This document shows positions 4,016-5,424 of a stretch of DNA of 62,756 bases, piece by piece (positions within the stretch are counted from its first letter, which is position 1; each line of letters begins with the position of its first letter). This DNA comes from a virus (taxonomy: Duplodnaviria > Caudoviricetes): IMG/VR virus record IMGVR_UViG_3300036793_000052, positions 1 through 62,756 of that record, one strand, 5' to 3'. The notes beneath the pieces are model-generated. The model did no database searches and had not been told where the DNA came from. It saw nothing but the letters and a program-made list of their open reading frames with translations. Both the position numbers and the translations under genes were made by a program.

Positions 4016-4070
4016 TCGAAACGCCTTCGGGCGTCTACCGGATCGGAATTCCGGTACTGATGAGACTTCC
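4014..4070 (+). ncRNA. Type II hammerhead ribozyme 1
   Basis: GTC-GAAA-CGCC TTCG GGCG-TC^-TACCGGA loop TCCGGTA-CTGATGA-GAC; loop GGAA can pair with 3' TTCC. Confidence 0.92.
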
Positions 4071-4093
4071 ACTGCAACACAAGGAGATTCGAA

Positions 4094-4282
4094 ATGTTCG
4101 TTAAAGGACAAGCCGTCGCCGTCGCTGTAAGCCACGGCAAGATGCTTGAAAAGACCATTTACACCGGCACCGTCACTTCGGTCAGCCTCGACGGCAAGAC
4201 AATCGGCTTCACTGGTCAAGATGACAACGGCCTCACCTGGTCACACAACAAAGTTCCCGTTCACCGCGTAACCGCTAGCTAG
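4094..4282 (+). CDS. small hypothetical protein
   Basis: Repeated extended RBS. Confidence 0.75.
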   Translation: MFVKGQAVAVAVSHGKMLEKTIYTGTVTSVSLDGKTIGFTGQDDNGLTWSHNKVPVHRVTAS

Positions 4283-4357
4283 ACCAAAACCGGCCCACTG
4301 CCAGTCGAACTACTCAATAACTAACCCAAAACCACTGCAAAACAAGGAGATTCGAAC

Positions 4358-5203
4358 ATGAGCACCAAAACCGCTGCACGCAAAACCAACGCCAAGCCCG
4401 CCGTCGATAAAGTTGAGATCAAATGGGCTGAGCTACTAGAGCAAGCCCTGACCGTACCCGGTAGCCGTACTAACCTGTTCAACCGGTTCTACGAGTACTC
4501 GTTTCTCAACATGATTTGGCTTACCGTGCAAGGCGTTTCGGAGCCCTGCGGCCCGTACGGGCTGTGGAAGAAGCTTGGTCGCCAGGTCCGCAAGGGCTCC
4601 AAGGGTAAGACGGTTCTGCATCCGGTGATCGTCACCAAGCGTGACCCCGAAACCAAGCAGCCTATCCTGAAGAATGGCAAGGAGCAGCGCATTGTGATCG
4701 GGTTTGCGCCGCGCGCAACAGTTTTCACCTACAGCGACACTGATGGCGACGACCTGGTGATACCGGAGCTGCCCGAATGGTCGCTGGACATGGCGCTCGC
4801 GGCGCTGGAGATTGAGCGGGTTCCGTTCGCGATCAACACCGGCAACGTCGGCGGGTACAGCATTGACCGCAAGCTTGCGATCAACCCGACCACAACCGCG
4901 CCGCTGTCCACTGCGTTTCACGAGCTGGCGCACATCGTGCTCGGTCACACCGGTAAGGATGGGCTCGAAGAGTACCAAACTCACCGGGGCGCAATGGAAT
5001 TCGAAGCTGAGGCTGTCGCCTACCTGCTCCGCAACGAGCTGGAAGTGCACGAATCCGACTTCGACGTCGAGCACAGCCGCAGCTACATCCAGACATGGCT
5101 TGGCGGGCAAGAGGTTTCAGAGAAGAGCATCCGCCGGGTGTTCACTGCAACCAACGCCATCCTCAAGGCTGGTCGCCCGACCCGCAAAACAGAAAGTGAA
5201 TAG
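4358..5203 (+). CDS. ardC: ArdC-like ssDNA-binding antirestriction protein with HExxH metalloprotease domain
   Basis: YSFLN..W, WKKLGRQVRKGSKG, FHELAHIVLGH, EFEAEAVAY, SRSYIQTW. Confidence 0.8.
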   Translation: MSTKTAARKTNAKPAVDKVEIKWAELLEQALTVPGSRTNLFNRFYEYSFLNMIWLTVQGVSEPCGPYGLWKKLGRQVRKGSKGKTVLHPVIVTKRDPETKQPILKNGKEQRIVIGFAPRATVFTYSDTDGDDLVIPELPEWSLDMALAALEIERVPFAINTGNVGGYSIDRKLAINPTTTAPLSTAFHELAHIVLGHTGKDGLEEYQTHRGAMEFEAEAVAYLLRNELEVHESDFDVEHSRSYIQTWLGGQEVSEKSIRRVFTATNAILKAGRPTRKTESE

Positions 5204-5205
5204 AA

Positions 5206-5346
5206 ATGAACAGCTACAAAATCAAGAAACTCGGAGATGGTTGGTACATCTTCCGCCGCACTGACTATGGAACACTTCGCCAACAACACGAGTTCCCTTT
5301 CGCCTCAGAGCAGGCCGCTAAACAGCATATGGACCTACGGGGATAA
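5206..5346 (+). CDS. small hypothetical protein (46 aa)
   Basis: Manual translation MNSYKIKKLGDGWYIFRR... Confidence 0.55.
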   Translation: MNSYKIKKLGDGWYIFRRTDYGTLRQQHEFPFASEQAAKQHMDLRG

Positions 5347-5366
5347 GTTAGAAGGACAACGTGAAA

Positions 5367-5424
5367 GTCGAAACCGCCTTAGGGCGGTCTGCCGGAATGG
5401 CTACCGGCACTGAAGAGACAGCCA
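5367..5424 (+). ncRNA. Type II hammerhead ribozyme 2
   Basis: GTC-GAAA-CCGCC TTAG GGCGG-TC^-TGCCGG loop CCGGCA-CTGAAGA-GAC; loop TGGCT can pair with 3' AGCCA. Confidence 0.92.

Follow-up and report, generated by a model that had tools for sequence, protein, structure and literature searches.

Two type II hammerhead ribozymes bracketing an ardC-like gene block as probable gene separators in the operon of a soil siphovirus

Clustered hammerhead ribozymes that flank prophage genes, including ardA in A. tumefaciens, were described by Perreault et al. 2011 (PMC3088659). According to the sections of that paper cited here, the clustered prophage ribozymes were all cleaved in transcripts of about 2 kb, both in vitro and in E. 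coli, and a role in mRNA processing was proposed for them (PMC3088659), a proposal that recurs in the cited section of a review (PMC6765202). In D. vulgaris, in vivo cleavage of three type II hammerheads located near phage-like genes has been observed, with capture of the two linear fragments, as the cited section of the respective report has it (PMC8782182). Pairs of hammerheads are also found in retrozymes, which, in the cited part of their description, have long terminal repeats (LTRs) of about 350 bp, a TSD, a PBS, a PPT, ribozymes mostly of type III, an interior of 600-1000 nt that is non-coding and a known ligase route (PMC4918200).

Here, we describe two same-strand type II hammerhead motifs that bracket an ardC-like gene block in the viral record IMGVR_UViG_3300036793_000052 (62,756 bp; hereinafter the window, that is, the whole stretch of DNA that was analyzed). 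The record belongs to an uncultured siphovirus from soil that carries actinophage-like genes. The features of the region are as follows.

3675-3834 (arms 3675-3704 and 3805-3834), + strand: long imperfect hairpin in the 5' UTR, just upstream of the first RBS
3863-4015, + strand: 50-aa gene, first among the small genes in the + strand operon; no PHROG and no Pfam match
4014-4074, + strand: hammerhead ribozyme 1, type II (RF02276, 33.3 bits); predicted cut C4035/U4036
4094-4282, + strand: 62-aa ORF, the first of the bracketed block; a conserved leader precedes its start
4358-5203, + strand: divergent, putative ArdC-like anti-restriction gene, 281 aa (ArdcN PF08401, phrog_7245)
5206-5346, + strand: 46-aa ORF, starting 2 nt past the ardC stop codon
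5366-5427, + strand: hammerhead ribozyme 2, type II (RF02276, 51.5 bits); predicted cut C5389/U5390
5454-7446, + strand: distal part of the operon, nine small genes downstream of hammerhead 2
6323-6679, + strand: DUF732 secreted protein, in the distal part
7096-7446, + strand: HTH protein, in the distal part
7455-7503, + strand: intrinsic-terminator-like hairpin of 18 pairs and, after it, a T run; a strong site
4326-4361, + strand: 36-nt leader, reference copy of a sequence repeat, ..CCACTGCAAAACAAGGAGATTCGAA(C)ATG
3832-3867, 4063-4098, 5422-5457, 5611-5646 and 6292-6327, + strand: the other copies of the 36-nt leader

An Rfam search of the complete record showed that hammerhead 2, with an E-value of 1.1e-7, exceeds the gathering score of the Hammerhead_II family (RF02276), which is 37 bits, and that hammerhead 1 misses it by 3.7 bits, with E-values of 0.0064 across all 4227 Rfam families and of 1.5e-6 when RF02276 alone is considered in this genome. 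Both alignments span model positions 1-66 of 66, and no third hammerhead was found at E<=1 anywhere in the 62,756-bp record. The core pattern CGAAAC..GTC..CTGANGAG matches the window at two sites, those of the two ribozymes, and has no match in any of 100 dinucleotide-preserving shuffles of the window. On direct reading, the catalytic core, namely, CUGA(U/A)GA, GAAA and GUC, is complete and correctly spaced at both sites, when compared with the residues that define the type II core (C3 U4 G5 A6 N7 G8 A9, G12 A13 A14, A15.1-U16.1 and H17); the form found in hammerhead 2 is CUGAAGA, with an A at position 7, which may vary freely. In both ribozymes, the closing pairs U1.1-A2.1, G10.1-C11.1 and A15.1-U16.1 are proper, stem II is open, with the strands AGUC/GAC, and loops close stems I and III, with 5 or 6 pairs in stem III and 7 or 6 pairs in stem I; stem III of hammerhead 1 is capped by UUCG. 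Loop I is predicted to form a pseudoknot with the 3' tail, immediately 3' of stem II, with at least four pairs in each case, as in the description by Perreault et al. 2011 (GGAA 4045-4048/UUCC 4067-4070 in hammerhead 1 and UGGCU 5398-5402/AGCCA 5420-5424 in hammerhead 2), the sequence differing between the two ribozymes with complementarity kept in each, and three stem pairs (1.2-2.2, 15.3-16.3 and 15.4-16.4) are changed on both sides between the copies. The minimum free energy (MFE) fold of hammerhead 1 computed with ViennaRNA is the canonical three-way junction (-19.2 kcal/mol), and in the fold of hammerhead 2 stems I and III are formed.

The two ribozymes, separated by 1352 nt from start to start, occupy the intergenic gaps 4016-4093 and 5347-5453. 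The first two bases of hammerhead 1 are the last two of the TAG stop codon (4013-4015) of the 50-aa gene, and the stop codon at 5346 precedes the start of hammerhead 2 by 20 nt. In the core, the open stem II, the loops that close stems I and III and the pseudoknot, the ribozymes described here agree with the RF02276 family, from which they differ in nothing essential. At the level of sequence and predicted fold, the presence of two genuine type II hammerhead motifs around the ardC block is confirmed, and the earlier note on this DNA, which had reported two same-sense hammerheads here, was correct in this respect.

The RNA between the predicted cuts spans positions 4036-5389, or 1354 nt, and consists of the 62-aa ORF, the ArdC-like gene and the 46-aa ORF, each with its own start signals; both the coordinates and the contents are the same as in the earlier note. 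When this RNA is folded, the stem I hairpin is made up of nucleotides 1-21 and the stem III hairpin of the final 18 nt. Should both ribozymes be active on one transcript, the RNA would carry 5'-OH and 2',3'-cyclic phosphate ends. There is no terminator-like site on the + strand between 3863 and 7156, so a single transcript is plausible; it has to be assumed, because no promoter was located, the sigma-70 promoter scan of positions 1-11000 yielding 0 sites compared with 5.0 expected from shuffles. The hairpin at 7455-7503 is likely to be the 3' end of the operon. The hairpin at 3675-3834, a 30-nt inverted repeat with 90% complementarity that appears in the MFE fold, may represent the 5' end of the operon RNA or a processing site. 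Among the sequencing runs listed as containing this phage, two are of DNA and none is of RNA. One of the DNA runs is probably the source of the window; in the other, which belongs to a different study, identical short fragments, including 3889-4075, were identified when contigs were compared with positions 3000-8000. No contigs were found that join across 4036-5389, a result that, given the thin cover in the second run, speaks neither for nor against a cassette polymorphism at the DNA level.

The 281-aa protein encoded in the middle of the bracketed block contains an N-terminal ArdcN domain (PF08401; 29.8 bits, with a cut-off of 22.6) and, in its C-terminal part, an HExxH metalloprotease motif of the form HELAH; the C-terminal families themselves score below their cut-offs (Peptidase_M78, 18.8 compared with 22, and MPTase-PolyVal, 17.8 compared with 27.5). 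The protein also matches phrog_7245, annotated as 'anti-restriction protein' (E 2e-14), and, weakly, the ArdC structures 6i89 and 6sna (E 0.006), with a collinear alignment over residues 51-256. The best match among solved structures, the designed repeat protein 7ue2, is spurious. This architecture, ArdcN joined to an HExxH metalloprotease-like part, is that of ArdC, in which an ssDNA-binding ArdcN domain precedes a zinc metalloprotease domain, and the protein is a putative anti-restriction protein. Among phages, a tblastn search with the ArdC-like protein yielded 4 matches with 28-31% identity, and a blastn search with positions 3500-6000 yielded none. ArdC-based scans of viral and metagenome contigs led, in both collections, to one and the same contig, with a locus that has 41% identity and lacks a hammerhead; a scan of a genome contig collection found no relatives. 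Apart from this relative, a tblastn search with the operon proteins of the window matched only one phage contig, L097, which encodes a bona fide ardC with a stop codon that abuts a 64-bit type II hammerhead. In L097, the hammerhead is on the 3' side of ardC only, and a promoter-like site is located upstream of the gene. That ArdC is a regular partner of hammerheads can be ruled out, since ArdcN is present in only 1 of 50 hammerhead-bearing records.

At least two RF02276 matches, always on one strand within a record, are present in 19 of 50 hammerhead-bearing viral records, and the spacing between adjacent matches (n=39) has a median of 550 nt, 38 of the 39 being no greater than 2000 nt. Of the 40 records with any RF02276 match, 21 have a single one, and because of this, the role of the family cannot depend on pairs. 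To describe the positions of the ribozymes relative to genes, we used 133 of 143 pattern-defined sites from 120 viral loci, with 10 dropped that lie less than 200 nt from the end of a locus; the pattern fixes stem II as AGUC/GAC, so defined stems being common to at least 120 viral loci, and the set includes some near-duplicate phages. Within 80 nt downstream, 111 of the 133 sites are followed by a start codon that has an RBS and opens an ORF of 40 aa or longer, at a median distance of 26 nt, compared with 9/133 in the antisense control and 138/665 at random positions on the same strand. An ORF ends within 60 nt upstream of 128 of the 133 sites (antisense, 59/133; random, 242/665), and in 117 of these 128 cases, the end is at most 3 nt away; at the median, site and stop codon overlap by 2 nt, as observed at hammerhead 1. 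The two ribozymes of the window, which lie on the same strand, within a few kb of each other and in the gaps of a phage operon, have the arrangement of such an array.

As far as the cited sections of the work by Perreault et al. 2011 describe them, the prophage arrays, too, consist of same-strand type II hammerheads in which loop I forms a pseudoknot with the 3' tail, are located in phage operon gaps and bracket a short block (PMC3088659), and the cargo is of the anti-restriction kind in both, namely, ardA in A. tumefaciens and beside the Legionella hammerheads, and ardC in the present case (PMC3088659). Unlike in those sections, the cargo here is ardC rather than ardA, a distinction to be read with the proviso that the supplement of that paper may already list an ardC context (PMC3088659). 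The present host of the motif also differs from the arrays described there in being a soil siphovirus with actinophage-like genes, with each ribozyme fused to a 36-nt leader (PMC3088659).

We consider it probable, at roughly 0.7, that the type II hammerheads are gene separators that cut the operon RNA co-transcriptionally into linear mRNAs with hairpin-capped ends. The motifs, their positions and the predicted structures of the RNA ends are shown here; cleavage in vivo, co-transcription of the genes and an effect on stability are what we infer. Under this scenario, a polycistronic + strand transcript, which starts near 3.8 kb and stops at the 7.5-kb terminator, would be separated by the two ribozymes, each of which fills an intergenic gap and would cut itself during RNA synthesis. 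Three linear pieces would result: the leader with the gene 3863-4015, the 1354-nt ardC block and the 2.1-kb distal part. In those downstream of a cut, the 5'-OH would sit immediately on the stem I hairpin, with the standardized leader and the RBS after it, and those upstream of a cut would terminate, about 20-40 nt past the last stop codon, in a 2',3'-cyclic phosphate on the stem III hairpin. Ends capped in this manner, a 5'-OH on a hairpin and a cyclic phosphate on a hairpin, would be stabilizing, judging from general knowledge of bacterial RNases and engineered ribozyme insulators, and both 3' exonucleases and RNases that depend on a 5'-monophosphate should attack the pieces poorly. In insulators of the RiboJ type, a self-cleaving hammerhead just upstream of the RBS removes the upstream context and leaves a hairpin-capped leader with a 5'-OH; these are synthetic, single elements derived from plant satellite RNA. 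In a similar manner, the ardC block might be uncoupled from its neighbors in both stability and translation, with the differences that the element described here is natural, of type II, and would also shape the 3' end of the upstream message. The earlier note had proposed a stabilized or circular mRNA; of these, the stabilized mRNA is judged most likely, and the circular part is not supported.

The predicted ends are those of plant retrozymes, in which two same-sense hammerheads likewise delimit an RNA whose ends are a 5'-OH and a 2',3'-cyclic phosphate, so that the ardC-block RNA could, in principle, be ligated (cited part of PMC4918200). The retrozyme analogy drawn in the earlier note is not supported beyond this point: instead of LTRs of about 350 bp (cited part of PMC4918200), the longest direct repeat in positions 3100-7600 is the 36-nt leader, and the interior encodes three proteins, including ArdC; by repeats and ORF content, none of the retrozyme features listed above was seen here. 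The chimeric hammerhead which that note predicted on joining the ends is real on paper, in that the 5389/4036 junction folds in silico (ViennaRNA) as a full three-way hammerhead with a 4-pair stem II and an intact pseudoknot (-22.7 kcal/mol). However, compatibility of stem II characterizes the subclass, being found at the 120 or more loci mentioned above, and a chimera of this kind would arise from every pair of type II hammerheads with a common stem II. A 2',3'-cyclic phosphate and a 5'-OH are the substrate chemistry of RtcB. The predicted ends thus suit this ligase, which occurs in some actinobacteria, for example, Corynebacterium glutamicum, the control in our RtcB search, and the start signals of the three ORFs would fit translation of a circle by internal initiation. 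Nevertheless, a circular ardC mRNA, closed by the reverse hammerhead reaction or by an RtcB-type ligase of the host, seems very unlikely to us: once cut, the ends would be held solely by the four pairs of stem II (-2.1 kcal/mol), circularization brings no gain in energy (MFE of -447.9 for the circle vs -451.6 for the linear form), and neither RtcB nor an RNA ligase was found to be encoded in the phage, so that closure by self-ligation or RtcB, as envisaged in the earlier note, is not supported. The lone hammerheads in 21 of 40 records and the single, 3'-side hammerhead of ardC in L097 also speak against a circle, and a literature search for natural phage circular mRNAs derived from hammerheads found none among the papers listed. 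Perreault et al. 2011 discussed processing, splicing and circles, and sought circular and spliced products of such arrays, with neither detectable according to the cited sections (PMC3088659). That the block, ligated by itself or by host RtcB, yields a translatable circle, and with it a burst of exonuclease-proof anti-restriction mRNA right after entry, is likewise very unlikely; if true, this would be the first case of a natural circular mRNA made by a ribozyme in a virus of bacteria. The reciprocal event, 'splicing out' of the ardC block by joining the fragment that ends at 4035 to the one that starts at 5390, was raised as an idea in the same study (cited sections of PMC3088659), and the corresponding chimera retains stems I and III in folding, but its stem II has just 3 pairs and is missing from the MFE fold, a two-molecule reaction would be needed, and the failure to detect spliced products applies here directly; we regard a message without ardC as scarcely credible.

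Two further alternatives concern the activity of the ribozymes themselves. Conceivably, they are switches, with cutting and ardC expression set by upstream translation or by ionic conditions. In hammerhead 1, the AGUC strand of stem II shares bases with the TAG codon at 4013-4015, so that a ribosome terminating there would keep this ribozyme from folding, and with 117 of the 128 upstream ORF ends at most 3 nt away, such overlap is usual in the family; moreover, regulated cutting has been suggested for some phage hammerheads (Perreault et al. 2011, cited sections of PMC3088659). We nevertheless hold conditional cleavage to be unlikely, given that hammerhead 2, with the stop codon 20 nt upstream, is free of any overlap, that both cores are of the consensus, fast type with a pseudoknot, and that the overlap may merely reflect tight packing of genes. 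Somewhat more doubtful is the possibility that at least one of the motifs is an inactive relic, or that hammerhead 1 is a chance match or a decayed copy, such that at most one cut, at 5389, would occur and a defined RNA of 1354 nt would not be produced. The score of hammerhead 1 below the cut-off is compatible with decay, and no close relatives that could show conservation were found in nucleotide and ArdC-based searches. However, hammerhead 1 keeps every conserved core base, the closing pairs, the UUCG-capped stem III and a matching pseudoknot, its MFE fold has the canonical shape, its E-value within this genome is low (1.5e-6), and many context-verified members of RF02276 score in the same range.

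In terms of the gene-separator interpretation, the pair around ardC is most likely a further example of the hammerhead-punctuated phage operon, a layout known since 2011 from the cited sections of PMC3088659. On its own, the present example matters little. The recurrence of anti-restriction cargo, ardC here and in L097 and ardA in the published cases, hints at fast, insulated expression of counter-defence genes as one use of these ribozymes. The motif is carried here by an actinophage-like phage, compared with 0 of 3 cultured mycobacteriophages, sampled from the top-listed tape-measure matches, in which RF02276 was sought, a result that is weak because the control genomes gave no RF02276 match either. 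A ribozyme that extends from the upstream stop codon to about 26 nt before the next start, with hairpins capping both new RNA ends, offers a testable natural model of a 'gene separator'.

The leader into which each hammerhead continues directly is the longest direct repeat family in positions 3100-7600, and its 13-mer has 7 matches at no more than one mismatch compared with 0.02 expected. Alignment of the leaders suggested a possible decayed hammerhead upstream of ardC (4283-4357), an idea that was dropped because Rfam gives nothing there at E<=1. Cluster K mycobacteriophages reportedly possess start-associated sequences, short conserved elements that include the RBS and precede some start codons. 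The 36-nt leader is similar in being a repeated, conserved element with an RBS upstream of starts, and it differs in its sequence, ..AAGGAGATTCGAA.., in its confinement to one 2.5-kb stretch and in the fusion of two of its copies to ribozymes.

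The two motifs that the earlier note had described as same-sense hammerheads were both recovered on the + strand by Rfam model RF02276, along 66 of its 66 positions. Against a gathering score of 37 bits, hammerhead 2 (5366-5427) passes at 51.5 bits and hammerhead 1 (4014-4074) falls short at 33.3 bits; the E-value of hammerhead 1 is 0.0064 when all Rfam families are considered and 1.5e-6 for RF02276 alone. A bare core pattern matched these two sites only, with 0 matches in 100 shuffles, and Rfam yielded no further hammerhead at E<=1 in the 62,756-bp record. Both copies contain the complete core (CUGAUGA or CUGAAGA, GAAA, GUC), and each of the three stems has standard closing pairs. 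Stem II is open (AGUC with GACU or GACA), stem III forms a hairpin capped by UUCG or UUAG, and the loop of the stem I hairpin forms a pseudoknot with the nucleotides immediately 3' of stem II (GGAA/UUCC in hammerhead 1, UGGCU/AGCCA in hammerhead 2). By all these features of sequence and predicted structure, both motifs are members of the type II hammerhead family.

Nearly all genes of the record are on the - strand, and base skews and ORFs delineate a single + strand operon of ~13 small genes (3863-7446) that harbors the hammerheads.

Features of the + strand operon and its surroundings
2743-3114, - strand: HTH_17 gene
3115-3862: non-coding stretch of ~740 nt between the - strand HTH_17 gene and the + strand operon
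3832-3867, 4063-4098, 4326-4361, 5422-5457, 5611-5646 and 6292-6327, + strand: copies of a 36-nt leader
6323-6679, + strand: DUF732 protein with signal peptide (E 3.9e-12), distal operon
7096-7446, + strand: HTH protein with weak repressor-like PHROG matches, distal operon
7455-7503, + strand: terminator-like hairpin (18 pairs and a T run) that closes the operon

Both hammerheads continue directly into a copy of the conserved leader (..CCACTGC..AAGGAGATTCGAA(C)ATG), so that ATG 4094 sits 19 nt past the end of hammerhead 1 and ATG 5454 sits 26 nt past the end of hammerhead 2. The leader (..CCACTGCAAAACAAGGAGATTCGAA(C)ATG) is found 5' of six genes of the operon, at 3.8-6.3 kb, and its 13-mer core has 7 matches with at most one mismatch, against 0.02 expected. 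Cluster K mycobacteriophages reportedly possess start-associated sequences, which the leader resembles in concept. No sigma-70-like promoter was found within positions 1-11000.

For comparison, we used 120 listed viral loci that carry this ribozyme subtype, defined by the fixed stem II pattern (at least 120 exist). Two or more strict pattern matches are present in 15 of the 120, always in shared orientation. The complete records that contain the first 50 loci were searched with RF02276; 40 of the 50 gave a match at E<=0.001, and 19 of the 50 gave at least two, within each record on one strand only. The spacings between adjacent hammerheads (n=39) have a median of 550 nt and a range of 259-5614 nt, with 38 of 39 at most 2000 nt, and the 1352-nt spacing in the window is ordinary for such arrays. 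A lone hammerhead occurs in 21 of the 40 match-bearing records, and therefore the role of the hammerhead needs no pair.

Positions relative to genes could be assessed for 133 of 143 sites; the other 10 lay too close (200 nt or less) to the end of a locus and were left out. Counted on the pattern with fixed stem II and with near-duplicate phages included (137 distinct ribozyme sequences), at 111 of 133 sites the start codon of an ORF of 40 aa or more, with a ribosome-binding site, lies within the next 80 nt (median 26 nt past the ribozyme core), compared to 9/133 antisense and 138/665 random same-strand controls. On the same basis, an upstream ORF ends within 60 nt at 128 of 133 sites (antisense 59/133, random 242/665), in 117 of the 128 within 3 nt, the median being a 2-nt overlap of the stop codon with the first bases of the ribozyme. 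Thus, given this regular stop-to-start placement, the hammerheads are co-oriented gene separators that span the gap from a stop codon to the next ribosome-binding site. Six phage records of 52-62 kb (G008, G011, G014, G022, G035 and G050, behind loci L010, L013, L016, L024, L037 and L052) each have two type II hammerheads separated by 286-314 nt, of which one is strong (62-69 bits) and the other weak (28-36 bits). These records appear to represent a single phage group in which a two-ribozyme unit around one small gene is conserved.

In the window, the predicted cuts follow C4035 and C5389, and therefore the released RNA is 4036-5389, 1354 nt, with ORFs of 62, 281 and 46 aa; as a prediction from cut sites and ORFs, the excised ardC RNA proposed previously is borne out. 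In its predicted fold, the 5' terminus (nt 1-21) forms the stem I hairpin and the final 18 nt contain the stem III hairpin. The 281-aa protein scores above the Pfam cut-off for ArdcN, contains a HELAH motif, matches the PHROG 'anti-restriction protein' family (E 2e-14) and shows a weak, collinear match (E 0.006) to ArdC structures 6i89 and 6sna; we accordingly classify it, by sequence similarity, as a divergent ArdC. A full ardC (1632-2645; ArdcN 3.5e-41, MPTase-PolyVal 9.7e-46) is present also in L097, an unrelated viral contig, with its TAA stop adjoining a type II hammerhead of 64 bits; 5' of this gene there is a promoter-like TTGACA..TATACC and no hammerhead. Being solely 3' of ardC, the L097 hammerhead can affect only the 3' terminus of the ardC transcript and the 5' terminus of the one that follows. 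The published cases in the available part of Perreault et al. 2011 (PMC3088659) include ardA beside clustered hammerheads, and anti-restriction genes recur beside such ribozymes (ardC in the window and L097, ardA in the published cases), in numbers too few for a claim of enrichment. ArdC as a regular hammerhead partner was rejected, ArdcN being present in 1 of 50 hammerhead-bearing records.

We favor, with a probability of about 0.7, a reading in which a single operon RNA cleaves itself during transcription and yields three linear pieces. Each fresh 5' end would be a 5'-OH on a hairpin of 6-7 pairs followed by the standard leader, and each fresh 3' end, shortly past the final stop codon, would carry a 2',3'-cyclic phosphate on a hairpin. 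In bacterial RNA decay, 5'-monophosphate-dependent RNases and 3' exonucleases act poorly on hairpin-capped 5'-OH and cyclic-phosphate ends, and in engineered ribozyme insulators, the same design also uncouples translation from the upstream context. For the phage in question, we infer cleavage, co-transcription and stabilisation. Upstream of the operon, an inverted repeat (3675-3704 / 3805-3834; 30 nt, 90% complementary, arms 100 nt apart) forms a long hairpin that stops 15 nt 5' of the first ribosome-binding site and is a candidate RNase III-type processing site or 5' stabiliser; the first piece may thus gain an end unlike those of the ribozyme-cut pieces. The available parts of three papers support three steps of the mechanism: clustered phage hammerhead arrays cleave in vitro and in E. 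coli (PMC3088659), a processing hypothesis for hammerhead arrays has already been proposed (PMC6765202), and type II hammerheads near phage-like genes cleave in vivo, with both linear fragments captured (PMC8782182).

It is improbable that translation of the upstream gene controls cleavage by way of the stop-codon overlap. Hammerhead 1 starts with the final two bases of the TAG stop of gene 3863-4015, and hammerhead 2 starts 20 nt 3' of the stop codon at 5346. Between the two hammerheads, three stem pairs are changed on both sides, as is the entire pseudoknot, with complementarity kept; these paired changes fit selection on structure, an indication from n=2 sequences. It is quite unlikely that the motifs are inactive relics.

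The earlier note further envisaged a circular ardC mRNA closed through a chimeric hammerhead, as in retrozyme circles. In its favor, the joined ends of the product do fold into a complete three-way junction (-22.7 kcal/mol), with a stem II strand, GAAA, stem III and GUC contributed by hammerhead 2 at the 3' end, and stem I, CUGAUGA, a stem II strand and the pseudoknot by hammerhead 1 at the 5' end. However, such a chimera is generic, arising from any pair of type II hammerheads whose stem II is identical, and AGUC/GAC is common to at least 120 viral loci. After cleavage, only the 4-pair stem II, a duplex worth -2.1 kcal/mol, holds the product ends, circularity brings no gain in predicted fold stability (-447.9 for the circle vs -451.6 for the linear form), and neither RtcB nor an RNA ligase was found in the phage record. 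Retrozymes, in the available portion of PMC4918200, have long terminal repeats and a non-coding interior, whereas the ardC block has only the 36-nt leader repeats and a coding interior, so the likeness fails on defining features and retrozyme identity is ruled out. Within the accessible text of Perreault et al. 2011 (PMC3088659), spliced and circular products of clustered phage hammerheads were considered and neither was detected; splicing out of the ardC block by the ribozymes is hardly credible. Our literature search found engineered circles only and no natural circular mRNA derived from phage hammerheads. Thus, the two-hammerhead observation is confirmed, and the circular mRNA is unsupported and very improbable.

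The record, an IMG/VR virus entry that the window covers in full, is of the linear class, 100% complete (CheckV), and comes from a soil metagenome. Its 1396-aa tape-measure-like protein has distant matches only, at ~26-29% identity and for the most part from phages of Mycobacterium and Gordonia, and one operon gene encodes DUF732 (PF05305), a family typical of Mycobacteriales; because of these two features, we treat it as a putative uncultured actinophage-like siphovirus. The distal DUF732 and HTH genes are reminiscent of mycobacteriophage prophage-expressed cassettes, yet no tyrosine integrase was found in the record. Of three cultured mycobacteriophages taken from among the top-listed tape-measure matches, none carried the RF02276 motif. 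The layout belongs to a known arrangement, clustered hammerheads in phage operons, and the novelty is modest: ardC as the bracketed cargo, compared to ardA in the published cases (PMC3088659, as available), an actinophage-like genome carrying hammerheads, a start-associated leader joined to each ribozyme, and the stop-codon-to-start-codon placement rule, now quantified.

Within the non-coding stretch 3115-3862, a pair of 22-nt direct repeats (3222-3243 / 3285-3306) could be an operator. The sequence at 15990-16081 (- strand), which weakly matches the actinobacterial sRNA family Ms_IGR-7 (25 bits vs a gathering score of 45, E 0.86), is probably just a G+C-rich hairpin. In two metagenome DNA runs, the second with thin coverage, no contig joins the flanks of the bracketed ardC unit as a DNA-level variant lacking it would. 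Short contigs in a second soil metagenome run, from another study, are identical to 3889-4075, which spans the whole of hammerhead 1, 4440-4602, 5463-5715 and 6683-6833; therefore, the same phage is present in at least two data sets.
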